From: Octopus vulgaris
Taxonomy: Eukaryota
Direction: 5' to 3'
Assembly (NCBI GenBank): GCA_951406725.2
Contig: OX597817.1
Location: 149,854,001-149,918,000 of the forward strand
Length of the DNA stretch: 64,000 bases
Below the pieces are notes generated by a model. That model was not told the DNA's origin. It made no database searches and was given only the letters and a program-made list of their open reading frames with translations. This document shows, one piece after another, positions 5,751-56,442 of the stretch (its first letter is position 1; the number at the start of each line of letters is the position of its first letter). The position numbers and the translations under genes are program-made.

Positions 5751-5952
5751 CAGTTCTATATTTAAGAGATGGGGAATTATGTACATTATTTACATTTGAT
5801 GGATAGTTGTCCTCATCTTGTTTGTTGTTAACACAACATTTAGGCTGATATACCCTCCAGTCTTCATCAGGTGTCTTGGGGAAATTTCGAACCTGGGTTC
5901 TCATTCCTAAGGTATATAGCTTAGTGGTTAATAATAATAATATCGAAAAATA
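5751..5952 (-). mobile_element. Hammerhead-bearing element (same family as 30157-30432) with inverted 5' piece
   Basis: minus: gacac-CTGATGA-agactg..cagcc-TAAA-tgtt-gtgtt; followed by plus-strand fragment tagcttagtggtta-ataataataatatcgaaaaata. Confidence 0.75.
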
Positions 5953-6000
5953 TCGATGCAGCTCTGAACCAGTCAGACATGAATAAGAACAAAACCAAGA

Positions 6001-6660
6001 CTAAAGAAAAACTGTGCTGTTGTCCATCAACAACCCATCTATGGATCCCCTTTCCAAGAACACAGCATTCAGCACTTCTGCAACTTCAGCAGCAGTCTCC
6101 ACCCTGATTTCTTTCCATGTAGCCATTTGCTGTCCATAGTCAACCGTTGAAAGGTACACATTTCCCCGACAGTGTGTCACGTCAACAGCAAGCCTCTTCC
6201 AGAGTCCTTCCACTTGAATTATTCCGGTTTCGTGTGTACACAGGGCAGGATCGATGGATTAGCACCTGTTGCAATTCCCCACTATCCTCCAAACGCTATC
6301 CCCGGTGACATTGGGGTCAACTGTCCTAGCCAAAAACAACATCCTGTCAACTCCCCTATGTGGTGCATGTTGTGCAGCCTCCTCAGTTCTGTGTCCTCCA
6401 GCCAACAAACCGCTGCTACTCCACTTGGAACATCCTCTACTCTTTCCAACCAGTGTTTTTTCACTCTAGTTGAAACGTCCGCCTTATTCTTTTCCAAGGG
6501 CACGTAATTCACATACAACTCCAGGCCAAATTCGGCAGCTAGCTCCCTTAGGATTCCCAGGCGACGCTTAATCACCATTTCCGCAGCCCCTTGCGCGTGA
6601 ATATTATTCCGATTGGTGATCACTGATTCCACTCCACCTACCCTTGCACCGTGGCAGACC
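6001..6660 (-). mobile_element. LTR retrotransposon pol fragment (RNase H end + integrase core), frameshifted
   Basis: YVPLEKNKADVSTR (RNase H C-term) then WKRLAVDVTH..YLSTVDYG..LLMDNST (rve D,D); RH-before-IN order fits Gypsy/BEL. Confidence 0.8.
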
Positions 6661-7405
6661 TCGACGTCTTATTTCGCCCACAAATATCGTAAGAAAGACT
6701 TGACCTATTGCTGGCCGACGTGACCTCATCTCGTCCCCTTCCGGTCTTCTTGCGAAGGTCCCTCTTTTTCCTTTCGGGTCAATTACTCTTCTACCACATA
6801 CAATTAATTAAGAAAAAAACTTCCAATTTCTTATATTAACATTTATTATCACGCTTTAATAGATATTTAAAATAAATGCTAAGACGTCATTGATGCAACC
6901 AACGAACAAACTTCTTCGTTTCAATAACTTTGCAATAATTAAGGAATCGCTATGAATAACAAGAGTATATTTGCAACAATTTGTATCAATGAACTGCAAA
7001 TATACCTAATATTTATATTTGAAGTGTGTTAGCGAGACATTGTAAACAAAACAGTTTAACAATTGTATTAGCGTCATATGATGACAGACGGTGCGCTGAA
7101 GGTCAACAGGAAGGGTAACGAACCCAACAAGTGAATAAACAACGGTTTTTTCTACCCTAAAATAATATAAACTAATATTTTATAGAAGATATAAATGATA
7201 TATTACAAGAGATCAGTATTCTGAAGATAATTACTCAGAAATCTTTTTACCGTTAGATAAGCAATACAGTAACGATAAGAGATTACCGGTTGTGATAGCA
7301 GCAAAGTCATATATAAAGTTAAAAGAAAAAAAAGACGACATTCTTTCATTTAAAATCATAGCTTTTCCAGAAGTAGGAATCATCAATTTTGTAACAGATA
7401 ATTAC

Positions 7406-7480
7406 CTTCTGAGTCCATACTGTTCGAGAAATTCTTCTCGTTATATCAAATAAACGCACATGCCCCATGCAGGTAGCCAT
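7406..7480 (-). CDS. OXA1L: OXA1L exon 1 (start of mitochondrial targeting peptide)
   Basis: ATG in good context (aacatcATGG on minus); 25 codons MATCMGHVRLFDITRRISRTVWTQK, Arg/Ser/Thr-rich like a presequence; donor AAG|gtaat, phase 0 matches exon 2. Confidence 0.75.
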
Positions 7481-8349
7481 GATGTTGTATAACAGGTCAC
7501 ATCTAAAATATGGAACAGAAAATTAAAATGAAACGATCCTAAAAAAACTTGGAATTAGAATTACGAAGACTGGTGAGCGAAACTATGGATTGTATAAAAT
7601 TTCGTTTCACGTGAAGGATTGTGAGTGCAGATGGTTTACATCTGATGAGTTAAAAAAACTGATTTTGTTTCTTACTTACAGTCTCGTGTTGTTGTTAAGC
7701 CGCAGGTCAGCTCTGATTGAACAAACCTATGAAGACATCTCAATCTTCATCATGTTTTTTTCCGTTTCCAGGGAACCCAAAACATTATCTAACAAGTCTT
7801 TTTTTAATTCGATAGGGCGAGATTCGAAGATTTGACGACTATTTCCAGCAGATCGAACGACCATGTTGGGGTTCTTTCATTGACTCAAACGGTCTCATAT
7901 AAATAATAAAGAATTTGTTGAAGCCATATTATACACAAAAATATTATTAAATATTCATAAGTTCATAAAATTCTAATAATGGATTGCTTTCCCATTCTTT
8001 CTCATCCGAAGAAACAACTAAAAGTTACATCAGTTTCGGAACACGTCCTGGAAAGCATTTTCTAGCATTAGTGCGCAGTTCTCAACGAATTAAAACAATG
8101 AATAAACATGCGTTTCACCACGAACGAAGTCAGTATATAGCATTCATAAATTGTAGATTAAATTACAACTTTATTGCAAGTTTTATTCATTTGTTGCTTA
8201 CTTACGCCTCATTCTGCGTTCGGGTACCACTTTCAACACTCTCCTTGATCAATTTTCAAGGTGTCGCCTACTTTCAGCTAGTACAAAATTCTCAGGGGAC
8301 TGGATTGATACTCTGCCTGTTGCCAACATTAGAGGTGTACTCAGTCTAC

Positions 8350-8876
8350 CGAGGTCTACCGAGCTAAACCTAATCGTTAAGCGGGTCCTGGCTCGAATAA
8401 ATGAATAAATATCTCCTCAGTTCTGGAACCGTTGGGATTATCCAGAAGTGATGGAAAGAGACCAGATGGTCTTACCCTCTGCCCCTCGGTTAGAGGTAGG
8501 TGCCTCATTTGGGACACCAGTCTGCGACTCCTTTGCTCCATCCCACATCCCGGATGCTGCAGTTAATGTAAAGGGTCACTGCTCCCGTAGCCGAACGGAA
8601 GAAAACCCTGAAGTATCGGGACCAGACAGTGAATTATCTTTTCCAGCTTGTGACGTTTGAGCCGTTCGGAGGGACTGGGTCACTAACCGCGAAGCTCTTG
8701 TCAACGTTGGCAGCTCGCCTCAGCGAGGTATCAGGTGATGCCCGTGGGGGCGCTTGGCTTTTCCAACGCCTTAGCCTCGCCATCGCCCGTGGTAATGCTG
8801 CTAGCGTCCTGGCTTGCTTCAGTAGGTTCCTTTAAACCTTCTGGCGTGCGACCAGTCGCTGTAATAAAAAAAAAAA
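8350..8876 (+). mobile_element. 5'-truncated CRE-like non-LTR retrotransposon (restriction-like endonuclease domain) with poly(A)
   Basis: [29 protein letters not shown] and WLFQRLSLAIARGNAASVL across frameshifts; AATAAA merged with A-tail at 8863-8876. Confidence 0.85.
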
Positions 8877-9039
8877 TTCCCCACAAATCGTTTCAATAGT
8901 TTTAACTGAAAGATTTGGGAGAATTAGATGAAAGTTCTCCTGTAATTTTCTTTTATGTAAATGAACGTTTATGTTAATTTAAAAAATTGCCAGCAAAATC
9001 TTATAAAATGACAATGTTCTAAAAGATGTACACCTTCCT

Positions 9040-9278
9040 GGTACTACTTGAGAACAGTGGTCTCAGTGCGCGCACTCGCGTAGTCGCGCATCAGCGCTAG
9101 CTAGTTGATCCTACAACGACTACCAAGCAAAGTAAATAAAACACAAAAACCCACAAAGTGAATAATTTTTTAAACAAAGTAAATAACACTCAAAAACACA
9201 AAGTAATGATCAACTAGTCGTGACTAGCTAGCGAGTATGCGAGTGCGCGCACCGGGACCACTGTTCTCAAGTAGTACC
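9040..9278. mobile_element. MITE with long TIRs and 9-bp TSD (Merlin- or Mutator-like)
   Basis: TIR GGTACTACTTGAGAACAGTGGTC...GTGCGCGCACTCGC; TSD caccttcct (9031-9039) / cacgttcct (9279-9287). Confidence 0.85.
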
Positions 9279-9377
9279 CACGTTCCTATGTTATAAATGA
9301 AAATCTACGCGTCCATGTGATGGGAAGAAATTGAAGTTATCTCCCTTCCTGAATTCTCGGAATTCAAATTTAGAATC

Positions 9378-9536
9378 ATGGCGGCGATTATTCGTGTGAA
9401 ACGTCGTATTTCCGATGGACCTTTGGAAAATATTGTTGTTTCTTGTAAAAAGAATCGCTTGATTGAGAATGTGAATACACCTAATGAGGATATTGTTACT
9501 ACAGAGTTAAAGTTTGCCGGAACTGTTGTTGATAAG
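9378..9536 (+). CDS. SLC7A6OS: SLC7A6OS (Iwr1 homolog, RNA polymerase II nuclear localization protein) exon 1
   Basis: atcATGG; MAAIIRVKRR...IVVSCKKNR...LKFAGTV resembles the Iwr1/SLC7A6OS N-terminal RVKRK motif; donor AAG|gtaaga; 159 nt. Confidence 0.9.
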
Positions 9537-9778
9537 GTAAGATCTTTCGAATAAAACTTGTAACCATGTGATTTTCTTGTGAGGCCTAAACACAAACATC
9601 GATGTTGGCAGGTTTTGTTGTTATTATTTTGTCGCTGGTCAGCCCCCAACTTAGGTTGGCTATGGACCCTTCTTCGTTTCTAGGTCTCCGTGAAAGTAAA
9701 AGGCATAATTTACTTGTCCTTGTTATGGTGAAGAAATAAAGCTCACTGAAGATTCGCATCACACTGATGGATCTGTTT

Positions 9779-10463
9779 GGGTAACATAGCCCTAGATTCA
9801 AAATACCATGTTAACATGCAGTTTACCGATGTATGTATAAACATACATTTTCGCAAAGAAAACAAACTTCTTTCTGCATTTCATTGATCTCCTATATTAT
9901 TTGCGTGTTGTTCAAAATCTAATTCAAACCACTGCTATCACTATTGAAATAGATCAGATCGTGTTTGAACAATTATTTAAAAGTATTTGATCCGTTTAAG
10001 GCGGCGAGCTGGCAGAATCGTTAGCACGCCGGGCGAAATACTTAGCGGCATTTCGTCTGCCGCTACGTTCTAAGTTCAAATTCCGCCGAGGTCAACTTTG
10101 CCTTTCATCCTTTCGGGCTCGATTAAAAAAGTACCAGTTACGCACTGGGATCGATATAATCGACTTAATCCGTCTGTCTGTCTGTCCTTGTTTGTCTCCT
10201 CTGTGTTTAGCCCCTTGTGGGTAGTAAAGGAATAGGTATTTGGTCCGTTTATCATTTGCATTTATTATCTTAATAAAACTCTAACTTTTCACTCATGGAA
10301 ACTATTTCCGTTTTTGTGCTGGAAAACAGCGACTTCTCACAATACTTTCACTTTCATGGAGACATGGAAACGAAGAAGCGCCGATCCAGGATCAAAGTTA
10401 TTCAAAGCGTAACTATCTTGCCCTTCTTTTGAAGGGTATTTTGAATCTAGGGCTATGTTACCC
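9779..10463. mobile_element. MITE with 29-bp perfect TIRs, interrupted by a SINE
   Basis: GGGTAACATAGCCCTAGATTCAAAATACC at both ends in inverted orientation; degenerate flanks atctgtt/atgtgtt. Confidence 0.85.
10000..10233 (+). mobile_element. SINE family B (tRNA-like head, Nin/Deu-like central domain)
   Basis: ggcggcgagctggcagaa head, gttcaaattcc B-box, gcctttcatcctttcggg core; TSD gtatttg(a/g)tccgttta; other copies approx 4270-4470(-), 12045-12260, 17933-18370 (tandem), 36740-36940(-), 36995-37447(-, tandem), 40988-41224(-), 44471-44680, 63101-63335. Confidence 0.85.
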
Positions 10464-10794
10464 AATGTGTTCCATTTCAATACGGTAAGGTGTACCTTAA
10501 AGGTGGTTTAGCTCTATTTCTCACAGGTTTTAATCCAAAACTTACAGTTCTGAACTGGGGTACTTTTTACGGTTAATATACGATGCCTTACAACTGTTAC
10601 ACATTTCGTTTCCATTTTTCCCACCGGGTGCGGATCTAGATATTAACCCTTTTTACATATCATAACTTCAAAGTTAGAAAATCCCTCCACTTTGGTGAGT
10701 ATTATTCTGATTCCTCTTATATTTATTGGCACTAAGTAAGCAAAACACCAAGTACAGTGTACAATGAGTGAATAAATGTATATATATATATATA

Positions 10795-10955
10795 CCATAT
10801 TTTAACGTGTATAAGTAACCCTTTTTTGTCAAAAATTAGGTTAAAAAATATGGGAGTTTCTTATAAATGGATAATATTATAATCCCTTACAAAACCTTTT
10901 TTCAAAATTTTAAGCCTAAAAAATTTAGGGGTTCCTTATACCCGTTAAAATACGG
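10795..10955. mobile_element. Short pogo/Tc-like MITE
   Basis: CC(G/A)TATTTTAAC...GTTAAAATAC(G/A)G TIRs with TA flanks; further copies 26111-26274 and approx 42570-42725. Confidence 0.8.
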
Positions 10956-10981
10956 TATATCTGTGTGTGTATATGTATATC

Positions 10982-11020
<39 letters not shown>

Positions 11021-11032
11021 CCTTTCTTTTAG

Positions 11033-11350
11033 ACAGATGCTATTTCACAGCACATTCGTAAAGCAATCAAGAAGGAAAAACTAGAGAAAGAATATAAACG
11101 TCATGCTTGCCAGGATCCTACTGTTAGAAGCCGCACCATTTCCCAGGCATCATCAAAGAACAAACGATATTTTGTTGTTTCAAAACACAGGAGCCCAGAA
11201 TTGGATACAATTGATTCTGTAAATGTTGACGATGAAACTACTTCACAAAAAACGCAAGATGCTACCAAAGAAACTGAGACTGACCCTGTCAGTGACAAAT
11301 TATATGTTCTGTATGATATTGAACAGGATGTGGTCCCCATTGCTGCAAAT
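11033..11350 (+). CDS. SLC7A6OS: SLC7A6OS exon 2
   Basis: pyrimidine tract + tag| acceptor, |gtgagt donor, 318 nt open, phase 0/0. Confidence 0.88.
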
Positions 11351-13010: not shown

Positions 13011-13048
<38 letters not shown>

Positions 13049-13487
13049 CTACACAGCCTTGCTTTTTTATCACATTACAAAAAAACATTTATATGTATAT
13101 ATATATAAATGGCGGTGCCCCAGCATGGCCACAGCTCATAAGCTGAAACTAGAATCAATCAATCAATCAATATATATATATATATATATCCCTCCACTTT
13201 TGTGAGTTTTAATGTAGATTAACTCAACCATACATAAAAGTCCAATCCTGGGGGTTTTATATATGCACTAAAACCCTTGAACATTGTGCCCCAGCATGAC
13301 CACAATTTAATGAGTAAAAATAGTAAAAGAACAAAATAATAAATATCTTAATTTGTATAACATTCTAGTATTTCCATATTAAAGCTTTATTGAAAATTCC
13401 ATTTGATTAGTAAAGCATTGTCAAAGTTTGTATTTGATCATTTGATGAGTTTTCGAGTCATTAGTAGTTTTCTTGCTTATCTTTCAG

Positions 13488-13794
13488 CCCCAGCAGAAGG
13501 ATGTTGTCACCTGCAATTCAGTCCCCATGGAAAGGGAAAAGGTACATTACACCACAAACGGAGAATATGTGTATGATTTGTATTATATAAACCGTTCGGG
13601 ATTTGATTATCGCTGGCTTGAGAGCACCTCGTCCATTGAACTGTATGAGCAGATTTTGATGGATGACAGATTGTCTGATTCTGATGAATATGTCGAGGAA
13701 GATTCAGACAGCAATGACGAAAACAACTGGAGAAATGACTATCCTGACGAAGATCCCCACTTCTACGACCCTAATGAAAAAAACAGTGATGAGG
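13488..13794 (+). CDS. SLC7A6OS: SLC7A6OS exon 3 (Iwr1 domain)
   Basis: tttcag| and |gtaagc; TCNSVPM, YVYDLYY and EDSDSNDENNWRNDYPDED are diagnostic Iwr1 motifs; 307 nt phase 0/1. Confidence 0.95.
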
Positions 13795-14574
13795 GTAAGC
13801 TGGAAAAATCTCAACTAGCCTATTATCATCTTAGCTTTTTAAACCCCAACTAGCCTATTATCATTTTAGCTTTTTAAACCGAATATTATACCTGCTTTGT
13901 GTTTAAACTAGCCAGATTTGGCCTCTCTTACAGTGTCGTTCTAAAAATAAGCATCATTTTCATCATCCTTTAACATCCATTTTCCATGCTGGCAAGGATT
14001 GAATGGTTTGACCAGAACAGGCTGCCGGAGAGCTGCACCAGGTTCAGGTCTGATTTGGCTTGGTTACTATAGCTGGATGTCCTTCCTAACACCAACCACT
14101 CCTAGAGTGTAAGTGGGAGCTTTTTACATGCCACTGGCATGGGGGCCAGTCAGGTGGCACTGGCATTGACCACATTCAAATGGTGCTTTTTACATGGGGG
14201 CCAGTCAGACAGCACTGGCATTGACCACACTCGAATGGTTCATGAGAGCCAGTCAGGCGGCACTGGCATTGACCACACTCAAGTGGTACTTTTTATGTTG
14301 GGGACAGTTAGGCAGCACTGGCATTGACCATGCTTGAATGGTGCTTTTTTACATGTCATCGGCACAAGGGCCAGTCACACAGCACTGGCATTGACCATAC
14401 TTGAATGGTGCTTTTTACGTGCCTCTGGCACTGGCGTTGACCATGCTCAAATGGTGCCTTTTATGTGCCACCAGCACAGGTGCTAGTCCGGCAGCACTGG
14501 CATCGGCCACAACTACAATTTCACTTGACTCAACAGTTCCAGTCTGCTCAGCTAGCAAAAATTAGTAGTACATG

Positions 14575-24643: not shown

Positions 24644-25400
24644 TCATCATCATCATCATCGTTTAGCGTCCGCTTTCCATGCTAGCATGGGTTGGACGGG
24701 TCAACTGGGGTCTGTGAAGCTGGAAGGCTTCGTCAGGCCCAGTCAGATCTGGCAGTGTTTCTACGGCTGGATGCCCTTCCTAACGCCAACCACTCCGCGA
24801 GTGTAGTGGGTGTTTTTTACGTGCCACCTGCACAGGTGCCAGACAGAGCTGGCAAACGGCCATGAACGGATGGTGCTTTTACGTGTCACCAGCACGGGGC
24901 CAGGCGATGCTGGCAACGGACACGAACGGATGGTGCTTTTACGTGCCACCGACACGGGGCCAGACAGAGCTGGCAACCGGCCACGAACGGACGGTGCTTT
25001 TACGTGTCACCGGCACGGGGGCCAGCCGAGGCTGGCAACGGACGCGAACAGATGGTGCTTTTACGTGCCACCGACACGGTTGCCAGACAGAGCTGGCAAA
25101 CGGCCACGAGCGGACGGTGCTTTTACGTGTCTCCGGCACGGGGGCCAGCCGAGGCTGGCAACGGACACGAACGGATGGTACTTTTACGTGCCACCAACAC
25201 GGGGCCAGACAGAGCTGGCAAACGGCCACGAACGGACGGTGCTTTTATGTGTCACCGGCACGGGGCCAGGCGAGGCTGGCAACGAACACAAACGGATGGT
25301 GCTTTTACGTGCCACCGACACGGGGCCAGGCAGAGCTGGCAAACTGCCACGAGCGAATGGTGCCTTTACGTATCACCGGCACGGGTGCCAGACGAGGCTG
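24644..25400 (-). repeat. Family C element with expanded approx 61-bp tandem array (about 10 units)
   Basis: unit ggtgcttttacgtg(c/t)caccggcacggggccag...; alternating cagacagagctggcaaacggccacg and gccgaggctggcaacggacacg variants. Confidence 0.9.
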
Positions 25401-28412: not shown

Positions 28413-30156
28413 TAATTGTTGAGCATGATGAACACTTATCAAAGGGTTTCCAGTTGTGAACACCAACAATTTGTTCTTAAAGCTGTGGAGTGACATTTAA
28501 CAGCCATTTTTAGCAGAGCATGTGATATTTGCATTAAAGGATCCATTGTGATATGTAAAGTTCCGCTCTTCTGTAGCCATATTCCTGCAACAACACAGAC
28601 AACATTTAGGTTTGCACCACACTTATATGTGTTCAATTACACTCAGTTACTTTATTTCCAATTAAACACAGGAATAAGAAAAAAGATTATACACATTATA
28701 CCCATCAAGCTGAGCAAAATCACAGTGGTGGCAGATATTGGTGTCACGCAAGTGGCACCCATGCCAATGGCACATAAAAGCACCCATTACACTCTCAGAG
28801 TGGTTGGCATTAGCAAGGGCATCCAGCCATAAAAAAACATACCAAATCTGACTAGAGTCAGGTGCAGCCTTCCAGCTTACCAGCCCTGATCAAACCATCC
28901 AACCCATGCCAGCATGGACAACGGGCGTTAAATGATGATGATGATGATGACGAAGAAGAAGTACATTATATGGGTACCATATTTTAACTTCTTTCAGATC
29001 AACTCTATGGTTGTTTATATTTTGGTCAAGAGAATTACCATATGAGACATAAAACTTGTCCATTTGGCTCTAATGTTTCTGTGTTATTAAAAGTGGCACA
29101 CCACGGCTATGGCTTTGTTGTTGTCCACTCATTGCAAACTGTTGACACGTGGGTGAAAGTTTAATATTTCTCTCATACTTCAAGGAGAGTTTTCATTTAG
29201 ATAATTAAAAAAAAAGAACGATTTTTCTTAAGGGACAATGTTGAGAGTGCATAATGACTGGCAAAGGAAGTGGTTCCAAGGTGAGGATAACTTGTAGCAC
29301 AAAAGTGGAGATGGAATATGTGCAGTTTTGCTATTATATAATTACAGCAGCTGAATGGATAGTTATAAAGAGGAAGGAGGGATAGATCTGTAGTGGATGC
29401 TTAGTGAAATTCTTTCTCTCTCTCTGACATATATAACATAAATATGGATGTAGCAGATAACAGCTAACCTTCGGATGCTTGAAACCCTTTTGTGTCCACT
29501 ACTCTGATTGGTTGGTATTGGCGCAGTTTGTCTCTTGCTGTATTACACGCCAATATGCAACCCAACCAATCGCAACCTTCTGATAAGGTCCCATGACACA
29601 GTCTTCTAAATGCTCTGTTTGAGCCTATAATTTGCTATAAAAGCTTCAGCGATTCACCGTATTTTGTCTTTGGTTCTAGACCACTGAACACAAAGCACTC
29701 ATCTTAGTTCCAGCAACACAGCCAGTTCCAGCGATAGACAACATCAATTCTGGACCTCCGCCGCCTTCGCCTTCATCTTATTGACGTCAACAACAAATCT
29801 ACTTACACAGTAACTTCGCCAAGGTTTAACTTTACGCTGTTTGTGAATACTTCACCAAGGTTAACAGCCAGACCTACCTGCGAGAATTTCCTGTACCAAG
29901 TAACCTGGCACAGCATAGGAGCCACAACCTCTACACAACATGTGTAGTAACCGGTTCTGCCATTTTCACCTCAACTTCTTTGTTACAGAACTTCAACTAT
30001 TGTGTATCTAACTACGAACTGGTATTTAAATCCATCTTGTGTCTGAACATTCATTTTGCATCCTATTGTAAACACTTTCTATGCTCTGTACTCTATGCTC
30101 TATCCTAGATAGAGAAAAATATTAGATTTATAAGCCCTAAAATTCATTCCATAATT

Positions 30157-30432
30157 GCCCGTGGGCTTATGGCATGGTGGTTAAGAGCACAGGCTACTAA
30201 CCCCAAGATTCCAAGTTCGATTCCAAGCACTAACAATAATAATTATCATAACATCAAAAAATACCTTCAGAATGAGAACCCAGGTTCGAAATTTCCCCAA
30301 GACACCTGATGAAGGCTGGAGGGTATATCAGCTGAAATGTTGTGTTAACAACATACAAGTTGAGGACAAATATCCATCAAATGTAAATAATGTAAATAAA
30401 GCTCATAATACCTCATGTCTTAAATATAGAAC
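30157..30432 (+). mobile_element. tRNA-headed element containing a type I hammerhead motif
   Basis: A-box tggcatggtggttaagag, B-box gttcgattcc (30215-30224); hammerhead 30301-30346. Confidence 0.75.
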
Positions 30433-34209: not shown

Positions 34210-34372
34210 TTTATTTTAAGCAGCAGAAAATTCAACAAAATCTGTTACTCTGAGTTTCTCGTTGCCGTTCATCAGACAGTTTTTGCTAGATTCTAGCAAA
34301 AACTGTCTGATGAACGGCAACGAGAAACTCAGAGTAACAGATTTTGTTGAATTTTCTGCTGCTTAAAATAAA
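34210..34372. repeat. Perfect palindrome (81-bp arms, 1-nt spacer) containing a hammerhead motif on each strand
   Basis: arms 34210-34290 / 34292-34372; plus hammerhead core CTGATGA 34307-34313, GAAA 34324-34327, GTA 34334-34336. Confidence 0.9.
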
Positions 34373-34442
34373 GCATATTACTCTACCACTGGTATTTGAG
34401 TACTCTTTTTTCCACCTTGTTTCACATTTATGTGTTTACTCC

Positions 34443-34532
<90 letters not shown>

Positions 34533-35290: not shown

Positions 35291-38288
35291 ACATGTATGT
35301 ATGTGTTTGTAAAATATTACACAAAAGTTCTTTTATTTTTTTTCTTCTTTTGCTCCAAAAGTTCCGTAGTTAAAAATATTGTTCCAGACAAGACATTTCA
35401 ATAAAATATCTAATAAGAACAATAACACAATATGGAGGTAATAAAAATAGAGATAAATTTGATATTACAGTCTGCAAAGCCGACAAGAGAATTGAAGTTG
35501 TGTGCAAAAGTATTTAGTGTTTATCGGTTAGAACCACTCAGAACCAATAGAGCATAATCACCATTTTTTTTTTCTTTTCTGTCAGTCTTGATAAAATCTC
35601 TCTGTTGCTATTTGGTGTTAAGTTTAATATGATAACCAAGGTGTGATTGTGGGTTCGATTTACACTTAACTGCACCATAAGCAAATAAGTGTTAAGTTTA
35701 AAAACGTGTAGCCAGAGATAATGAATAATGTAGATTGGTTTGAATGATATTTGAACAATGCCAGGATGGTAATAGGTCTCAGGGAATTGCTACCGTGTGA
35801 TCTTGTATAAACAGGACAGATGGCAATGTGGATAATATTTTGCTACCCCATCATTTGCCCCTTTTTTATATGGCTTTTCAAGCATCCTAGAAACACCAGC
35901 CAAATTTCACACCACTTAAAAGCACCCAGTCCACACTGTAAAGTAGTTGGTGTTTGGAAGGGCATCCAGCTGTAAAAACCTTGGCAAAACTGACCTCGCC
36001 TGTGCTTGTGCCACATAAAAAGCACTACTCACCTCGCCTGTGCTTGAGCCATGTAAAAAGCACTAAGTCCATTCAGCTGAGTGGTTGGTGTTAGGAAGGG
36101 CATCCAACAGCAAAAATCCTGCCGAAACAGTCACAGAAGTCTGGTACAGGCATCAGCCTGGAAGGCTCTTGCAGTACCGTCCCACCCATGGCTCGCATGC
36201 AAGGCGGATGTTAAACAATGATGATGATGGTGATGATGATGATGATGCAATGTTTTTCCATCATTGTTTTTTTTACCTGTATACCCCTTTGACTCCTATT
36301 TTAGTCAGCTGGACCTCATAACCATTCAATGCTTTAAAAATCCTCTTATATTTTTATAATTAACTATTATTAAGAATTGTATTTTTTTAAAAATTGTCAA
36401 AATGTTTTGTGTATTGTAAAAGGATAATCATTCATTTCTCTTCAATGAAGAATTCTATCCAAAATATTAGATTCTTTTCTTTCTCATGGCAAAATATATT
36501 ATTCCATTCAGTGAATTTATTTATTAAGTTTACCCTGTCAAGAATTTAAATAACAAAATTTTGTATGGACCTTCAAGGGACATATGGACCCTAAGTGAGA
36601 ATGACTTCTTTACTGTCTTAAAAAAAAACAAAAGACCATATTGAATAATGTAGTCCAATGCCTAGAAAAAAGTGTTTGTGGCTTGAATGAAATTTTTTCA
36701 TTGGCCCGTTTGAGTAGAACTAACCAGGGTTAAAAACTCTTTCTAATTTTGGCACAAGGCCAGCAGTTTTGAGGGAAGGGAAAAATTGTTTACATCAACC
36801 CCGTTATTTATTTTATTGATTCTGAAAGGAAAAAATGCAAAGACGACCTTGGTGGAATTTGAACTCAGAATGTTAAGCCAGAAGAAATGTCACAAAGCAT
36901 TTTGTTTGACATGCTAACAATTCTGCCAGCTCACCACTTTCCTAGGGTTAAATAACAACTAGATAATGTAGGTTGATTGGAACATAATTAAACAATTCTT
37001 ATTTCTTTATTGCCCACAAGGGTCTCCACACAGAGATGACAAACAAGGACAAACAGATTAAGTCGATTATATCAACCCCCAGTGCGTAACTGGTACTTAT
37101 TTAATTGACCCCAAAAGGATAAAAAGCAAAGTCGACCTCAGCGGAATTTGAACTCAGATTGTAGCAGCAGACGAAATACCGCTAAGCATTTTGCCTGGCA
37201 TGCTAACGTTTCTTATTTCTTTACTGCCCACAAGGGACTACACACAGAGATGACAAACAAGGACAGACAAATGGATTAAGTCGATTATATTGACTCCAGT
37301 GCGTAACTGGTACTTATTTAATCGAGCCTGAAAGGATGAAAGGCAAAGTCGACCTCGGCAGAATTTGAACTCAGAACATAGCGGCAGATGAAATATCGCT
37401 AAGCATTTCACCCAGCGAGCTAACGTTTCTGCCAGCTTGCCGCCTTACATAATTGAACGATTCTTGTACATCAACAGCTTTTGGGGAATGGTTACTTTGT
37501 GGTTGGATGTAGCAAAAAAAAAAAACGGGTAAATATGACACTACCAACCACTAGCTTCAGCTGTATGGTTACTTGACCTATTAGAAACTGCAGCCAGATT
37601 TTACTCTACAACTTAAAAAATAAGAACATATTGAATGTAGTCCTGGATACACAATGCCAACCCCACCACCAAAGACAAGATGTTCATGGCTTGAATATTT
37701 TTTATCATTGGTCTATTTAATCAGAGCTGTCTGTGACTAAATAACAACAATCTTCAGGTGATCCAAATATATCCTCCAAAAATATAAGTTTTGTCAAAGT
37801 TAGTGGGTATAAAGAGCAGATTGATGATGACTGAAGTAAGAAATGTGAAAACAGAGCAACGTTTGTAGAAAGGCAGCAAACATGGAGCAAAATCTAGGGT
37901 GGACAAAATGAAAAATTTGATATCCTTCTTAACTCCGAATTTATAAACTATGCCAGTATGGAACAAAGAGGTTAAATGATGACAATGATGATGACTGTTA
38001 CTACAAAACATGTGATTTCTCTTCAATTAAGAATTTTATCCAAAATATTAGATTCTCAACTTTCTTATGGCAAAATATATCATTCTATTCTGTGAACTTA
38101 TTTATTAAGTTTGCCTTGTCAAGAATATGGATATGTGGGAACAAAGATATGTTATATAATATACAAACATGGAATCTAAGAATCATTGGAAGAAATATTG
38201 GTCTTGGATTCTGGCACAAGGCCAAAAGTTTCAGGAGAGGAGCCTAGTTGATTATATTAACCCCAGTTCTCAGTTGGTATTTATTTTA

Positions 38289-38534
38289 TCAACACTCGTT
38301 GACACTACATTGAAGAGGCTAGGGAACAAAAGAAAGAAGAAGAAAGAAGACATGCACCCAACACTAGAGCTGAAGACACCTCCGAAAGGGGGGGGGGGCT
38401 GCCACGTCAAAACTGTAGAGGAGTAGGGGCCGAAACCGGACGTGGTTCCTCTTGATGATGTCTTGAGCTAACTGGATCCTATAAAGGAGCTGTTGCGGTA
38501 GCAGACCACAAAACACGGTTGAAATTCCTTCCTT
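38289..38534 (+). mobile_element. Hammerhead-like insertion inside a SINE B copy
   Basis: 32-bp target duplication 38257-38288 / 38535-38566; CTGAAGA 38370-38376, GAAACC-ggacgt-GGT 38432-38446. Confidence 0.65.
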
Positions 38535-41500
38535 TTAACCTCAGTTCTCAGTTGGTATTTATTTTAACGACCCCCAAAAGGATGGAAGGCAAAATCGATC
38601 TTAAAAGAATTTGAACCCAGAACATAAAGACAAACGAAATTCTGTTAAACATTTTGCCTGGTGTGCTAACAAATTCAGCCAGAATTGGAAGAAATTACAC
38701 AACCTTTTAATAAATGGTTATGATGCCATTGGAAGCCTGTTTTGTGAGTGAGCTTTATCTGCCTCTTGGTTTAACACCTGGCTGTCATTAGCAGAACCCT
38801 CTCAGATGCAAGCATTCAAGTCAGGTCTTTGATCTGAGGATAACTTCCTTCCTCTCACTAGTCTTGGGAAAAGGTCACTGCATTTCCTTGTCTGACATAA
38901 ATCTTTAAAAAAAATTCAACATTGAATAACTTTCAGTTTCAGAAAGTTTAGAATTAAGGTTAAGAATATAGTTAGTATTTAAATTTAAATAGAAAACAGA
39001 TGTAGGAGTTCAAGAAGGTTCTTCACTGAAGAATTAATCAAAAGTCAAACATCTACTATAAAAATAATTCAAATATTTATCATATATCAACATCTGCAAT
39101 TTATAAGAACTTTTATCAAATTCTGTAATAAGTAATTCAATTTCATCAAAAATTGTTGGACACCACTAAAACAAACAGTGCTAATACCAAGTAAACAAAA
39201 TCTCAACATTCATTGACAATTCACAAATTAAAAATTTTCTTTTTTTTTCTAATCTCTTGAAATTTTATGTCAGAATCAAAATGGTCTGAATAGATATTAG
39301 AATTTTTAGAATCAGATCCAAACTTTTACATCTGGTTCCAGTTAAGAACCTTTTGGAACTTTTGAGGTGCAGACATGGTTGTATGGTAAAGAAGCTCACT
39401 TTACAACCACATGGTTTCGGGTTCAATCCCACTACATGGCACCTTGGGCATGTGTCTTCTACTATAACCTTGTACTGATCAATACCTTGAGTGAATCTGG
39501 TAGATGGAAACAGTTTGAAAATCAGTCACATATACAAGTTTATCTTTGTGGTGTTGGTTTGTTTATATCCCCATAACATTGCAGTTCAGAAGCCAATTGA
39601 ATAAGTACCTGACTTTAAATAAATAAATAAATAAAAAAAAAAACAAGACATAAGTACTAGGGTCAGTTTGTTTGACTAAAAGGCCCTCAAGGTGGTGCTC
39701 CAGCATGGCTCCAGTTCAGTGACTGAAACAAGTAAAATAAAGATCCATTTCCTCTTTATGACTCAAGTAAACCCCCTTTAAAAGTTCTGATTTCTTGCTT
39801 TACAACAATTGCATCCAAGACTCAGGAACCCACATGGAAGATGAACATTTTCTTAGAAATACCATTGAACACTTTGTCATTCCCCCCACCCTTATTACAT
39901 GTTTTGTTTGTTTTGAGTCAACCCAGTTCAAACACATTCTACCATCCTATCCTTATATTCTCACTATCTTTTGTCCTACCAAACACTTATAATAATTTTA
40001 CCACTCGAGAACCCCCTATCTTCAATAATTCCCATACAATTTCAACTTCTTACTATAATTCAAAAGGAGTGAAGTTGGTAGAATCTTTAGCATGTCACAC
40101 AAAATGCTTAGTGGTGTTTCCTCCAACTTTTTACATTCTGGTTTCAAATCTTGCAGAGATCAACTTTGCTTTCAATCCCTTCGGAGTCAGTAAACTAAAA
40201 TACCAGTGAAATACTGGGATCAATTTAATTAATTTGTTTCCTTCCCTCAATATTGTTAACCTTGAACTCTGCAACAGACTGGCACCCCATTCAGGGGGAA
40301 TGTTGTGATCTCGGTCTCTTATAGGATGTGGAAACCAGGAAACAAGCCAAATATATACATATGCAACCGTTCCTACATATGCACATATGATACTTGTTTA
40401 TACAGCTAGTGCAAACAAAACTCAGAGAGTATTCAAGAAATTAGAGCAAACATATATTTCAAGATGAAACAAATTGACATAACTTACTTAAACATTGGGA
40501 AGGGATTATTTTTATTTTATTTATAAATTTGCAAACAAGGTTTCTGGTTGGCCAATAACTGGTTCACTGCAATTTTAGTTTTTAGTTGTGAAAGTGAAGA
40601 GTGACAATGGAGTGTCTTTGTGACTCAATGCAGAACAAATATCAAAAGGGACTTCATTCAAGAAGTACCAGTCTTTTGGTTTTTTAATGGATGTTTACAT
40701 CTTTTGTTGAGGCTCCTCAATGAAGAATAATACACACACATAAATAAATACAGATGCATATATATATGTGTGTAGACACATCCATTCTTACACATTATAG
40801 AACCACTATGCCTTGCCAAGTTCCAGTTGCTATAATTGATGCCATTATGTAAGAGACTGACATAATCTACAAAGCAAACAATAAGACCTGAAGCTACAAC
40901 TATAGTCACTAACAGAATTTGACAACAATATTTGAGGGTGATAATCTGTCTCTAATACTTTATATCCAAGCAGTGACTCTTTGTCAGTCTTATTTCTTTA
41001 TTGCCCACAAGGAGCTAAACATAGAGGGGACAAACAAGGACAAACAAAGGATTAAGTCGATTACATCGACCCCAGTGCATAACTGGTACTTAATTTATTG
41101 ACCCCGAAAGGATGAAAGGCAAAGTCAACCTCGGCGGAATTTGAACTCAGAATGTAACGGCAGATGAAATACCGCTAAGCGTTTCGACCAGCGTGCTAAC
41201 GATTCTGCCAGCTTGCCGCCCTTACTCTGTGTCAGTCTTGTTAGGCAAATGCAAAGGGCAACGCTATAGGATCTGCATATGAAAGAAAAATTCATGTCAC
41301 CTACATGTTTTTTGTTGATGGCCTTAAGATGTACTTGAGTGAGTGGAATTAGGTCAAGAGAAGTGTTCATATAATATTCCAAACTGACCTACCATTGAGG
41401 TTCTTAATGCTGCAAAGTCTTGGAATAAAAGTACCATCTGTATAAAATTTCATTTTGCCAGGTAAGCATATAGCTGGCATCAGAACATGAATTTCATCCC

Positions 41501-46013: not shown

Positions 46014-46066
<53 letters not shown>

Positions 46067-47516: not shown

Positions 47517-47644
47517 CAGGGGGTGAGCAAAAGTAGGTACACAGTTGCTTAGTTGAATCGCTGAGGTTTAAAAATGAAGAAGGATTGAAAAAGAACATTC
47601 CACCCATATTAAGCAACTGTATGTCTACTTTTGCCCACCCCCAG
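47517..47644. mobile_element. Tc1-like MITE
   Basis: TA-CAGGGGGTGAGCAAAAGTAG..CAGTTGCTT / AAGCAACTG..CTACTTTTGCCCACCCCCAG-TA. Confidence 0.8.
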
Positions 47645-49850: not shown

Positions 49851-52066
49851 ATACAACATAGGCGTAGGAGTGGCTGTGTGGTAAGTAGCTTGCTTACAAA
49901 CTACATGGTTCTGGGTTCAGTCCCACTGGATGGCACCTTGGGCAAGTGTCTTCTACAATAGCCTCGGGCCAACCAAAGCCTTGTGAGTGGATTTGGTAGA
50001 CGGAAACTGAAAGAAGCCCATCGTATATATATATATATATATGTATGCATGTGTATATGTTTGTGTGTCTGTGTTTGTCACCCCAACATCGCTTGACAAC
50101 CGATGGTGGTGTGTTTACATCCCTGTAACTTAGCGGTTCGGCAAAAGGGACTGATAGAATAAGTACTAGGCTTACAAAGAATAAGTCCTGGGGTTGATTT
50201 GCTCGACTAAACGCGGTGCTCCAGCATGGCCACAGTCACATGACTGAAACAAGTAAAAGAGAGAGAGTAAAGAGTAACAAACACATACAATCAGTTACAA
50301 CCAGGGATGTGCAACCTGGGTAGGCATGGTGGGCAGTGCCTACCCTGAATAAAATAGATTGAGAGTAACATTTTCCTTTTATGGCAAAATATACAATAAA
50401 ATTATGAAGGTTACTCTGATTATTATGCATAAAATGCAAAATATTTTATTTTTTTGTAGATTAGGTAGGCATAATTCACTCCTGCTTTTCAATCTCAGTA
50501 TTAAAACTACACATGATACTGCTTGCTGTAGTACACGTGCTGCATACATTCCAACAAAATTTTCTTTACATGTTATAAAGGCAGAAGTAAATCTACCTTC
50601 AACTTAGTCGCACACCTGTGTTTCACTTATTTTTTTTTATTGCATTTTACTACATAAACATCACCAACTGCCTGTCACATAACCAGCCCATTTAAAAAGT
50701 ACCTTTAAATCGTCGGACATGCCATGCTTGAGGAAACCTGTTGAGGCAATCAAAGCCAAAATCAAATCAGATCAAATGGAAATTGTAGTTGTGGCCAATG
50801 CCAGTTCCGCCTGACTGGCTCCCGTGCTAGTGGCACGCCATAAGCACCATTCATGCATGGGTCATTGCCAGTGCCACCTGACTGGCTCCCATGCTGGTGA
50901 CATGCAATAAACACCATTCATGTTATGGGCCATTGCCAGTGCCACCTGACTGGCTCCCCGTGCCAGTGGAATATAAAAACACCATCCGAACGGGGTTCAA
51001 TGCCAGCCCCCCCCCCCCCAACTGGTTCCTGTGCTGGTAGCATGTAAAAAAGCACCATCCGAACATGGCCGATGCCAGTACCGCCTGACTGGCTCCTGTG
51101 CCGGTGACAAATAAAAAGCACCCACTAGACTCTCGGAGTGGTTGGCATTAGGAAGGGCATCCAGCTGTAAAAAACATTGCCAGATCAGACTGGAGCCTGG
51201 TGCAGCCTCCTGGTTTGCCAGTCCTCAGCCAAACCAACCAACCCATGCCAGCATGAAAAACAGACATTATGCGATGATGATGATGATGATGACGTGCCTG
51301 GTTACAACTGTTTACAGACAGCTAAACTGATAGAAACTGAATGGGAGTGTCACTGAGCAATGTGTGCCAGCCTCTCATGCTTTCCCATCTATAGCATCCT
51401 GACCAGTCTAAAACTATGGAAAATATTATGGACTCATAAATTTGAACAAATTTTGCAGTTCTTTATTTATGTGTCCAGAGTTTATAGAGTGGTGAAATTT
51501 AAAACCAAGGAAGACTTTTGTGAAAATATTTTTCAATAAAGATATTATCAAACAAGTCTTTATCATCTATTTTGAGCGCTTGTTTATAGTAATATAAGAA
51601 AATTAATATTTATTGATTATTGATTATCAATTTTATTTGAAAATTAAAAAAAAAAACGTTAAAACATCTGCTCAATGGTTTTAACTTTTGGCTGCCACTA
51701 TGTCACTATACATGAATGTGCATACACACATACAGAGTAATTTCTAACTTGTTTCAGAAGCAAAAACAAAAAGTACTCAATATATTGTGTTTAGCGACTA
51801 TATTTATTATGATACAGTAGATAAATATGATTAATCTTCCTTGACTTTAAGTTTCATGCTAAACAGAGCATACCTCTTGTAGATGTGATCTGAGAGACAA
51901 TCTCCATCCACATCTCATCGAACAGAGCAATGCTCTATTGAGCAAGAAAATTAAATTCCTAAGAAAGTAGTCATATCTATTTACTATTTTTATAATAAAT
52001 ATATACACACATGTATACGTGTGTTTCTGTGCATGTATATATATACATATATATATATATATTATA

Positions 52067-52136
<70 letters not shown>

Positions 52137-52523
52137 TTATATATATACATTATATATAATGTACACCTGAAAATTAAAATGTCAGCAATATCAAATCAAT
52201 TAAATAAAGATAGTCTGTTAGCAAAAATTTATGAAAGGGAATCAAATCTCTTGACTCAAAATAGGGTGAACAAACATAATTTTTTGTTGCCCATCTTACA
52301 GCTTTCACAGAAATTATATCGAGTATTCAAAAGGGAAAATGAATTTAAACAAGTGTAAATAGAAGCAAATAATGATTTTATATATGTTTATATGAATAAT
52401 TTTGTACACACGAGCTAATGAAGTTGATTACATTGCCTTGTTCCATTGTTGTTCATTAATTTATATATATACACATGCTAGAAACACTGCTTCAATATGA
52501 CAACACACTCTCACATACACTCA

Positions 52524-52572
<49 letters not shown>

Positions 52573-52619
52573 TCTCACACACACACACACAAACAAACAT
52601 ACATATATATATATGTATA

Positions 52620-52927
52620 CAGTTGTGGACTGGCCAGGTTGCCAGCTTGCCTGATGGCAAGTGGGCCCCTGTGCCATTAGAATCCGTATATGGGGGCCCA
52701 TCCCCTCAAGTTTGAGAATTTTTTATTCACTCCTGGAAGAAAGCATTAATTATTTCAACCTGGCTGTTTTTGCAGACAGTTGAAAAGAATACTTTCAAAA
52801 AAAAAAAAAAATTAAATGATAACATTGTAGTTGCGGGTGGGTCTCCCTTGTAGTTGTGAGTGCGCCTAAGGGAGTGGGCTCCCTTAGTCTCCTGGCAACC
52901 AATACTTTTAGACCCAGTCTACCACTG
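52620..52927. mobile_element. MITE with CAGT...ACTG termini
   Basis: cagttgtggactgg / ccagtctaccactg in a TA-rich site. Confidence 0.6.
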
Positions 52928-53068
52928 TATATATGTCATTTACACACAGCGATAGTAAGAACCAGTTGTTAAAACTCAATATGGATGTGTAGTAAAGCAT
53001 TAGGCAGGTACAAAACATGATATTAATTAATGAATTACAAAGGAACAGGAGTCACATAACCAAGATCA

Positions 53069-53153
53069 TTAGCTTACAGGCGTTTCTGTTATAAGAAGTA
53101 TTGCATTCATAACTGACTGCTTGTACAACATCCCACAGCTTCTTCAGAGCTAA
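53069..53153 (-). ncRNA. Type I hammerhead ribozyme motif
   Basis: minus: ttagct-CTGAAGA-agctgt..(long loop)..aca-GAAAC-gcct-GTA-agctaa; perfect 6-bp stem I. Confidence 0.7.
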
Positions 53154-54036
53154 ATAAGAGCTCAACTCTGAGTGCCCTGCATATTATAGTAGAAACACCT
53201 GTAACCTAAAGGTGATTACATTACCCTGTTCCATTGTCATTCATTAATTTATATATACATATGCTGGAAACACTGCTTCAATATCATGACAACACACATA
53301 CACACACACACATACATATAAGTCTCCCAATGAGGGTAGTGCACTATGTGCCGAACCTTGAGCCTGGCACTAAATTGGCCTTGCCCCTCGTAAAGAAGAG
53401 CAGAGCAAGACTAACTCACATTGAGACACTCATTGGTGGCTGTACTATGTTGGTATCAATTACTGCTCTAACACAAGATTAAAAATGATTCGAGAGAGAG
53501 GGAGAAGGAGGAGTCAAGACTGATAGTGTATACTCCTTGTATATGTGTGTGATTATATGTATGCATATGCACATTATATACAATATATATGTATGCATAT
53601 GTGTATATACAACATAAATGTATGCACACATTATTATAATACATATATATATTATTTTACTTGTTTCAGGCATTTGACTGCAGCCATGCTGGAGCACCGC
53701 CTTTAGTCAAACAAATTGACCCCAGGACTTATTCTTCGTAAGCCTAGTACTTATCCTATCGGTCTTTTGCCAAACTGCTAAGTTACGGGGACGTAAACAC
53801 AGTTGTCAAGCGATGGAGGGGGAACAAACACACACACAAACATATACATATATGACGGGCTTCTCTCAATCTACCAAATCCACTCACAAGGCTTTAGTTG
53901 CCCCAAGGCTACAGTAGAAGACATTTACCCAAGGTGCCATGCTGTGGGAGCGAACCCAGAACCATGTGGTTGGTAAGCAAGTTACTTACCACAGAGCCAC
54001 TCCTGCACCTAATAATGCACACATTATTATTATTGC

Positions 54037-54076
<40 letters not shown>

Positions 54077-54141
54077 GTATGTATATATGCCTGCACATTG
54101 TATATGTATGTATGCATGAATATCTGAACTCTCTCTGTATG

Positions 54142-54188
<47 letters not shown>

Positions 54189-54634
54189 ATGTATATATAT
54201 ATATATATATACACATACATATTTGCACATACATATATATATACAAGCACATTATATGTATGCACATGTGTGTGGCTATGTGTAGTGTGCATGTATGCGA
54301 TTGTGCATTGGGTGTGTCATGCAACAAAAATATTGGAAATCACGGAAGGAGGAGGAGAGGAGGGTTAATTTCAAACTGAAGTGGCTATAAATTAAGATAA
54401 AATAACATATCATTCGTTTAACAAAAGAAACATACACACATATACACAAACGAAAAAATTATTGTCTATATCAATGAAATAGCAGCAGAAATCACAGGAA
54501 ATTTACTTTATATTTCATCAAAAACATATTAAAAAAAAATAAAGAAAACACAGGGCTTGAAATTTACAGACATTGACAAAAAAAAAATACAATTTCCGTA
54601 GTTTCATCTTGTCTACAAAATAAAGAAAAATACA

Positions 54635-54668
<34 letters not shown>

Positions 54669-55288
54669 TAGTGTTAACAAACTAGTAAAAGATTTTGTAT
54701 ATATTTTAAATATCAAAATGAACTTTTAAATTTTTCTCAAGTTTTTTTTTTGTTGAAAAGGAAAGTTTTAAAATTTTCTTTTTCTTTTTATTTATTAGAA
54801 ATGCATCAGGAAAATATTTCATTTTTCATCATTGTTTTTTGGGTTTTTTTTACATTGTTCTTGGCAATATTGAATGAAATTTTGAAAATGAAATTTTCTT
54901 TTTCTTTTTTTTTTTTATCTTGTTCAATGTATAAAGTAGAGAGCATCATGGTGCTTTTTAAATGTTCGCATTCGGAGAACTCATTGTATCCATGAAATTA
55001 TCTTCAGTAAAGGATAATAATTAAATTATTATGACAAATGGAGATCCGGAGTAAATGGATTTGAGCAATGTTATTGGCTATTAAGCGAATAACTTATCTG
55101 TCACAGCAGCTCACAGAGACAAAGGTTAGACAGGCAAAGAACCAGATATAAGAAATTAAGGATTAAGTTTGGCTTATAATCCTGATCAATGAATCTTCAT
55201 ACACAGATTTATAATTAACACTGAAAGGAAAAAATGACAAGTCATGATGTGAAATATTTGCAATGAATATATATATATATATATATAT

Positions 55289-55331
<43 letters not shown>

Positions 55332-55409
55332 GAGAGAGAAAGAGAGAGCTGTCTAAGAAACCATATATCAGAAAAAAATATGCACTCCTATGTTTGTGAA
55401 TACAGAGTT

Positions 55410-55615
55410 AATCAAAGTATACAGTATTATAGATCTATTTCAACCAATGTCACCAATTAGTTTCACACTGGGTATTAGACTACCAGATATTAGATAACAG
55501 CATGGTTAACCGACAACAACGTGCTCTGAAGAGCATATAGCGATGGTTAACCATGCTGTTATCTAGTACCCAGTAAAATTGGCTGAAATGGATCTATAGT
55601 ACTATATACTTGATT
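55410..55615. repeat. Fold-back element with truncated hammerhead core in its loop
   Basis: tagataacagcatggttaacc / ggttaaccatgctgttatcta arms; loop holds CTGAAGA-gc-atata-gc-GA (55526-55543). Confidence 0.7.
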
Positions 55616-56144
55616 CATATATATTTGGTGGAACAAACCGGAGAAAGACAACTTAATACATAAGAATATATTTTATTCAGCGGTACAGTTACATAAGTGA
55701 GCCAAGAGACGAAAGGTTTGTGCATTGCCTTTATCAAACTCTGACTAGTGAGATAAATGTAATGCATGAAGCCCACAATTCTTGAATCACTTATGTAACT
55801 CTGTAACCCAATAATTTATGGATGTCTGTCTCATTAAATACATATATGTATGTATGTATATATAATATATAAATATATGCATATATACATATGTATATAT
55901 GTATATATACATGCATAAATGGGTACAGGACATCAAAAAATGTTGAACATAATGAGAAATGAAAACATAAAAACAAAAACATAGAAAACGAACTATTTTT
56001 TCGAACAACGAAAAAAATAAACAAGAAACGAGACATGCAACATAAAGAATATTCCCCTTCATCAGTTGTCCCTGTTTCATCTACTTCGTGTTTCAAAGTT
56101 AAGGACAATATATATATATAAACAAAAATTTTATAATTATGAGT

Positions 56145-56336
56145 ATAATTATAATTAGGGTTCATCAAAAATTTGTTTCACCACATACCGAAATTTAGAA
56201 ATAGCAGTTAAAATCAACTATTTCACTACCATAAGAAAAATCCGAGACATGGTAGTGAAATAGTTAGTTTTAACTGCTATTTCTAAATTTCAGTATGTGG
56301 TGAAGCAAATTTTTGCTGAACCCTAATTATAATTAT
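56145..56336. repeat. approx 88-bp-arm fold-back immediately upstream of a hammerhead
   Basis: ataattagggttca..tatttcactaccat / atggtagtgaaata..tgaaccctaattat, 16-nt spacer. Confidence 0.9.
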
Positions 56337-56379
56337 GTTTTTTACTTGTCTTTTACCTTGCCAAGTTAAATATTTAAAC

Positions 56380-56442
56380 CACCTGAAGAATGACTGTAAC
56401 TCGAAATTTTAAGAATTGGACAGCCATGAAACGATCGTAGTG
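56380..56442 (+). ncRNA. Type I hammerhead ribozyme motif with palindromic stem III
   Basis: cac-CTGAAGA-atgactgt..acagccat-GAA-ACGATCGT-A-gtg; predicted cleavage after GTA at 56439. Confidence 0.8.

Follow-up and report, generated by a model that had tools for sequence, protein, structure and literature searches.

The 64,000-nucleotide stretch of Octopus vulgaris DNA considered here (contig OX597817.1 of NCBI GenBank assembly GCA_951406725.2, positions 149,854,001 to 149,918,000 of the forward strand; below, the window) has a GC content of 37% and is rich in short interspersed elements (SINEs) and microsatellites. It also carries seven CTGA(T/A)GA strings, all present at the positions given by a first-pass annotation, which had read them as minimal type I hammerhead ribozymes in several unrelated short mobile elements. 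The motifs are treated here as families A to F. The reading favoured, as moderately probable, is that A, B and E derive from protein-coding Penelope-like elements (PLEs) with known hammerheads, of which they are truncated tails, as D is likely to be, and that C belongs to the 3' untranslated region (UTR) of a HERO-like long interspersed element (LINE), where it constitutes a predicted self-cleaving, rewired hammerhead. The assignment of the individual loci can be made with high confidence.

Family C and its rewired fold

The C fragment spans positions 38292-38533 on the plus strand. It is flanked by a long target duplication of 32 nt (38257-38288 and 38535-38566, 97% identical), which had been noted at first reading and is real; its left copy lies inside a SINE-like repeat. 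Longer C copies extend into an open reading frame (ORF) with a restriction-like endonuclease (RLE), and of 30 loci selected with the RLE protein, 29 have the C UTR downstream. The parent has a single ORF with a reverse transcriptase (RT) domain and a C-terminal RLE, the motif of which was read by eye. The element to which family C contributes the 3' UTR is a LINE of the R2 superfamily (HERO-like), not a PLE. A sister family, HERO-2, has an ORF of 1,175 amino acids whose best PDB relatives are R2 proteins (E 7e-18), and it is young and intact, with copies 99% identical. Exact matches in the genome number 1,057 for C and 917 for HERO-2. In a protein tree that included no named HERO references, C, HERO-2 and locus L239 are grouped apart from fish and amphioxus homologues. 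The name HERO for the C-type LINEs is used here as a provisional label.

What fold does the C motif adopt? A type I hammerhead at 38364-38454, as first proposed, was rejected: no stem II follows 38370, and the CTGAAGA found there pairs with 38459-38469. It is one strand of a closing helix, P0; C is not type I. Readings as type III, via a downstream GAAAC, and as a classic SGC hammerhead were also rejected, as both lack a stem II. On the plus strand, the predicted structure begins at 38368-38392 with the 5' strand of P0 (38368-38378, which holds the CTGAAGA) and a hairpin, Pa (38379-38392). The segment 38393-38423 holds the 5' arm of stem II (about 38397-38400, degenerate here), a stem III extension (38402-38408), the 5' arm of stem III (38413-38416, with one mismatch), the predicted cut after A38417 and the 5' arm of stem I (38418-38423). 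The 3' arm of stem II (38426-38431), GAAA (38432-38435), the 3' arms of stem III and the 3' arm of stem I (38446-38451) occupy 38426-38451. The CUGAUGA core (38452-38458) follows, with the 3' strand of P0 directly after it, up to 38469. In this copy C3 of the core is a T; with this change of C3 to U and the stem III mismatch, the window's C copy is probably dead.

The general layout was drawn from a comparison of C and HERO-2 with a metagenome contig whose protein is 52% identical to that of C. From 5' to 3' it consists of a P0 strand, hairpin Pa, a stem II 5' arm that begins with G, a stem III arm, NUH, a stem I arm and a linker of a few bases, and then of a stem II 3' arm that ends in C, GAAA, a stem III arm, a stem I arm, CUGANGA and the second P0 strand. 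The G-C pair adjoining G12 is supplied by the upstream strand, and the strand after CUGANGA forms only 0-1 base pairs with the GAAA arm in each of the five parsed lineages (C, HERO-2, a further family HERO-3, L239 and an ORF-less repeat, G). Since stem II is completed by an upstream strand, the chain would be open between A9 and G10.1, into a four-way junction in which P0, Pa and stem II abut. They do so without spacers in L181 (a subfamily C copy), HERO-2, L279, L239 and G; in HERO-3 there is a gap of 3 nt.

Comparative evidence for this fold is of several kinds. Covariation was counted in five sequences of three lineages, i.e. C, HERO-2 and the metagenome lineage, with HERO-3, HERO-4, G and its relative G2 kept out of the count: of the cells, 96.8% are paired, and in 15 of the 31 base pairs both partners differ between sequences, with such double changes in each of the six helices. 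None of 500 shuffles reaches the observed level, and slid controls give 44-59%. The fold recurs, with helices changed yet still paired, in four HERO-like families of this genome, the metagenome contig and two ORF-less repeat families. Full parses with differing helix sequences are obtained for the HERO-3 majority, the G majority and the HERO-4 copy L279; HERO-3 and HERO-4, two families of the clade found via a distant protein, keep the layout with different helices. A descriptor of the fold has no match in 9,000 dinucleotide shuffles, and its single match in a 1.13 Mb background (both strands) is a further true family, G. Judged from these sequences, the C fold is almost certainly real, and the comparative support for regarding the C locus as a putative variant of a known ribozyme is strong; a fold of this type is fairly likely to cleave in vitro.

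The closest known structures are the type-SGC hammerheads (HRIMA-1 and variants; Eckert et al., 2023, PMC10085705). In the parts of that paper available, the likenesses to C are the S-G-C block order, the full core, three mutually crossing helices and a short linker between stems I and II. The differences are that stem II of C comes from an upstream arm, that P0 and Pa are inserted at A9/G10.1, and that C resides in the DNA of animal retroelements, whereas those parts of the paper name no eukaryotic host and the terms 'Eukaryota' and 'Metazoa' are absent from the portion of its supplement available. The type-SGC model, as given there, assumes that the strand after CUGANGA forms stem II (PMC10085705). 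C has the block order and the core nucleotides, and a stem II directly 3' of CUGANGA is absent. By its sequence, the C fold would work like an SGC hammerhead opened at A9/G10.1, but it falls outside type SGC as defined. The C fold opens at A9/G10.1, where one extra base is tolerated in the hammerheads of PLEs. If the C fold is active, a hammerhead core can accommodate an entire helical junction between A9 and G10.1, and non-circular permutations go from agents known in metatranscriptomes to more than 2,000 animal genomic copies.

No paper describing the fold was found in the literature searched, as judged by title or the start of the abstract and with subscription papers, Repbase reports and bioRxiv supplements thinly covered. 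The layout opened at A9/G10.1 is missed by standard descriptors and by Rfam; an Rfam search gave no hammerhead family at E<=1 in the window, and none in loci L239 and L229. A metagenome scan yielded one usable lineage. HERO relatives were found in none of the viral contigs, and among GTDB contigs seven distant RLE loci, some without a UTR, all lack the motif. As a separate observation, an RLE retrotransposon with eukaryote-like flanks lies inside GTDB bacterial contigs (L264, L266, L267 and L268), probably as contamination.

Tandem copies and the template for reverse transcription

The HERO-2 unit is 3,738 nt long. Seven of 18 loci reach unit position 1 (four picked as tandems, three not), and in all seven the unit is seamlessly preceded by 248-1,981 nt of its own 3' end. 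The full element therefore has the motif at both ends, as does a PLE with its pseudo-long terminal repeats (pLTRs). The ORF-less repeat G is a unit of 0.7-1.1 kb in partial tandems, with spacings of 704, 791 and 1,094 nt. G and G2 (L003:930-1260 (-), L300-L332, L393-L447) are abundant in (TA)n, occur as partial tandems and inverted copies, and carry the same rewired hammerhead. No coding parent of G or G2 was found in the loci looked at; a Hydra ORF near one G2 copy was considered as the parent and rejected as a separate insertion. A 1.28-kb cyclic contig in run X1 (putative RNA), seen with L244:3800-4300, starts and ends in the HERO-2 motif and implies a derivative with an internal deletion that has kept the motif at either end. 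It is not counted as evidence of circles, as a cyclic form can arise from tandem DNA.

How might these tandems be related to the fold? In the cycle envisaged, read-through RNA from a partial tandem would be cut at both motifs and the unit-length RNA ligated into a circle. About 120 nt downstream of the cut, a fixed internal site would prime reverse transcription, which could go round the circle more than once. A circular template for HERO-like LINEs is held here as a tentative possibility. The fuller proposal is more doubtful still: that animal HERO LINEs and ORF-less repeats carry an active hammerhead with a split core and a non-circular permutation, a topology beyond the six permutations thought possible, and that the LINEs replicate via circular RNA as proposed for Penelope.

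The 5' ends of copies bear on the template. At the predicted cut there is no pile-up: 0 of 30 HERO-2 and 0 of 30 C copies start there, and all run through. Two of 30 G copies start within 5 nt of the cut, with no sharp pile-up. In this analysis the cut offset was corrected by hand to 35 nt, since the reference copy is mutated, and what looked like an accumulation of C 5' ends 295 nt before the cut was rejected as an indel in the reference copy. The absence of a pile-up speaks against a linear cut template and fits a circle; it fits an uncut template equally. Could the fold cleave, then, while the template is uncut tandem read-through RNA, or while template jumping builds the tandems, with cleavage serving only to trim or turn over RNA in the manner suggested for PLEs? 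Each of the 60 HERO-2 and C copies extends across the cut site, and the short copies of families A and E derive from uncut RNA (below), as this alternative would have it. Against it are the upstream repeats of varied length with an identical seamless junction, for which a fixed upstream promoter is no simple explanation, and we consider it unlikely.

Several other points weigh, together with the missing pile-up, against an active fold and a circular RNA. The covariation count comes from only three lineages and from a structure drawn from those same sequences, and it leans in favour of that structure for this reason. Few single copies pass the full descriptor (C 7/54, HERO-2 21/30, HERO-3 0/20, HERO-4 1/5), most being decayed. 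Nested minimum free energy folds prefer competing pairings (z -0.55 to -3.4), and P0 of G2 starts with two U.U mismatches, seen by eye. The break at A9/G10.1 conflicts with the assumption of an uninterrupted block C in the available parts of PMC10085705, and it may kill activity. For one PLE, cleavage is unnecessary for insertion in vitro, according to the part of PMC11167929 available.

A further alternative is that the fold is a non-catalytic, pseudoknotted element recognised by the LINE protein, either derived from a hammerhead or merely resembling one. R2-type LINEs hold a protein-binding structure in the 3' UTR, i.e. where the fold lies, and both the broken continuity of the core and the lack of a cleavage footprint in copy 5' ends are in line with such a role. 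CUGANGA, GAAA, the A15.1-U16.1 pair, NUH and the G-C pair by G12 are kept, however, while the surrounding helices change, and the fold is also present in ORF-less repeats unlike HERO. A purely structural role is on this evidence improbable.

The cleaving fold favoured here would place C beside the R2 LINEs with ribozymes like that of hepatitis delta virus at their 5' ends (PMC7650587, in the part available). C is likewise an RLE LINE, and release of its RNA by a self-cleaving ribozyme is predicted; it differs in its hammerhead-type core, its 3' UTR position and its PLE-like partial tandems. Through the C fold it can be tested directly whether the RNA of a LINE clade passes through a PLE-like cycle, tandem or circular.

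Hammerheads of Penelope-like elements

Most of the remaining motifs belong to a different type of element. Type I features, i.e. stem I, CUGANGA, stem II, GAAA, a palindromic stem III and NUH, are present in the family majorities of A, B, D and E, where B and D require an A.A at the base of stem II. The type I grammar proposed for all the motifs thus stands for these four, each with a full core, and fails for C, with no stem II, and for F, with no GAAA. The descriptor was relaxed to permit the A.A after family B had been seen; in this form it has four matches in the window (30306+, 34307+, 34275-, which mirrors 34307, and 56383+) whereas 100 block-wise Markov shuffles average 0.25 and never reach four. 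The motifs as such are real. At the strictest setting there is one match versus a mean of 0.02, a level reached by 2 of 100 shuffles. Matched loci number 20/25 in A, 25/25 in B, 7/25 in D and 28/30 in E, and the only single copies in the window that pass are those at 30301, at 34303 with its mirror, and at 56380.

Family A resembles the Penelope/Poseidon clade, a likeness judged by eye. The copy at 30113-30432 (plus strand) contains the last codons of a GIY-YIG ORF (stop at about 30131-30133), a tRNA-like head at about 30163-30233, an (AAT)n run and a minimal type I hammerhead at 30301-30346 with CpG decay. The other, at 5746-5915 (minus strand), is a truncated 3' end, and its hammerhead at 5830-5875 is decayed, with G12 lost (TAAA); the family majority has the full core. 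Upstream lie an RT (RVT_1, E 3e-11) and a GIY-YIG-type ORF, the parent being known in pieces. The region between stop codon and hammerhead holds motifs like the A and B boxes, seen by eye, and the (AAT)n run, yet ARAGORN recognised the head as a tRNA in 0 of 30 loci and Rfam gave no tRNA match at E<=5. A hand count of 25 copies picked by their downstream tail placed 15 starts from -10 to +17 of the head; four copies extend further upstream, and six start downstream or are ambiguous. These starts suggest that the head may be a promoter.

Family B, at 34210-34445 (plus strand) within (TA)n, is the 3' pLTR of an intact Hydra-like PLE. The hammerhead at 34303-34340 is accompanied by an inverted 81-nt copy that holds a second one (core at 34275 on the minus strand), and the window's share of the element is limited to the pLTR end and this inverted piece. 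A pattern search found 3,509 exact 33-mer matches in the genome. An uninterrupted ORF of 727-762 amino acids is present in three of eight regions fetched around paired copies, and in L131 and L132 it is flanked by same-strand pLTRs 3.35 kb apart. A homologue of the B protein carries the Pfam domain GIY-YIG (PF01541); the B protein itself gave no Pfam match. By the part available of Craig et al. (2021, bioRxiv 10.1101/2021.04.23.441226), B and the parent of E share with the Hydra clade a C-terminal endonuclease, a C-terminal position-independent set of further features, the CxCX5C linker and (TA)n targets. A third Hydra-like PLE family was observed at L448:4700-4850; by eye, it has a hammerhead-like motif with the palindromic stem III of B and other stems I and II.

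Family E, at 56356-56588 (plus strand), is a spliced pLTR retrocopy of a Hydra-like PLE with an intact minimal type I hammerhead at 56380-56442. An 885-nt GT-AG intron, kept in long copies, is gone from the segment 56356-56380, at about 56369/56370. An intron in the pLTR is common to E and Penelope (Craig et al., 2021, bioRxiv 10.1101/2021.04.23.441226, in the part available). There are 249 exact matches in the genome. E forms the end of a PLE with a 2.3-kb AT-rich UTR; one locus (L170/L451) joins E via this UTR, common also to L159, L160, L173 and L174, to a Hydra-like GIY-YIG C-terminal fragment 29% identical to the B C-terminus. Spliced and unspliced pLTR retrocopies coexist (window, L159), and among 18 pattern-picked copies three are spliced, 11 unspliced and four truncated. 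In 27 spliced junctions from similarity-picked loci, six duplicate loci being omitted, 18 end within a 10-nt window just upstream, which is likely to be the transcription start of E. In A and E, the short copies begin at the probable transcription start, which lies upstream of the cut site, and are thus taken to be copied from uncut RNA.

Family D, at 52950-53165 on the minus strand (bounds approximate), is an old, PLE-like short repeat with copies about 80% identical and an inverted partial copy that reaches about 53254. Stems II and III of its hammerhead at 53069-53153 are decayed, and the family majority has the full core. Neither an ORF nor a tblastn match of the A or B proteins was found in 47 loci with flanks of about 1.5 kb. 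D is likely a PLE remnant.

The motif F, first taken for a truncated hammerhead core at 55526, is no hammerhead. It is a chance CTGAAGA in a fold-back at 55488-55568, has no GAAA, and with up to one mismatch allowed its sole match in the genome is itself. The fold-backs as such are real at B (34210-34372), D, E and F.

The link to Penelope that had been drawn for all the elements thus applies to A, B and E, probably to D, and not to C or F. Partial pLTR tandems and inverted 5'-truncated copies, as PLE membership requires, are seen in A, B and E. Inverted partners occur in 16/25 A, 8/22 B and 8/45 D loci versus 0/30 for both C and HERO-2. Minimal type I hammerheads of PLEs are already published, and the picture of A, B, D and E agrees with them (PMC4209133, in the part available), in the short stem I, the palindromic stem III, the extra base after A9, the mostly solo truncated or inverted copies and the full elements of about 3 kb. 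Differences are the A.A that B and D have in place of G10.1-C11.1 beside the core, and the tRNA-like head between ORF and hammerhead in A; C shares neither topology nor host element with them. In Octopus vulgaris, a survey of repeats records 31 recently active Penelope-like and two Hero families, its main text, as far as available, being silent on ribozymes (PMC13282606). The type I loci of the window are textbook PLE debris.

Are the window's motifs nevertheless a population of non-autonomous, ribozyme-processed elements akin to retrozymes, all with minimal type I hammerheads? Short ORF-less copies predominate, D is without a parent in its 47 loci, and G and G2, though situated outside the window, lack ORFs and occur in partial tandems. 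Non-LTR retrozymes (PMC7229834; bioRxiv 10.64898/2026.07.22.740005; both in part) are likewise ORF-less hammerhead repeats with long target duplications and a relation to PLEs. They form tandem arrays of 150-450-bp units with canonical type I hammerheads expressed as circles, whereas the window copies of A, B, C and E derive from coding elements, as solo or inverted fragments, with no tandem array of ORF-less 150-450-bp units among them. Their lack of ORFs, as first described, is correct within the window and not for the families: A, B, C and E are contiguous with ORFs, and the search for autonomous partners with RT and GIY-YIG proposed at the outset succeeds for A, B and E, which extend upstream into RT and/or GIY-YIG ORFs. 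In A, B, C and E the copies begin upstream of the cut; the C motif falls outside type I, and F is no hammerhead. Such a population is refuted for A, B, C, E and F, and as an account of all the loci it has become extremely improbable. The finding as first stated is mostly already known and partly wrong.

Other features of the window

A host gene exon with an Iwr1 domain (PF08574, E 2e-7) lies at 13449-13853, and a fragment that by eye resembles the pol ORF of an LTR retrotransposon lies at 6151-6668 on the minus strand. The segment 32675-32945 matches the metazoan signal recognition particle (7SL) RNA at 94.5 bits, which exceeds the gathering score, and is probably a pseudogene or derived repeat. 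Tandem arrays of 61-bp and 19-bp units are found at 24835-25400 and 59889-60534, respectively.

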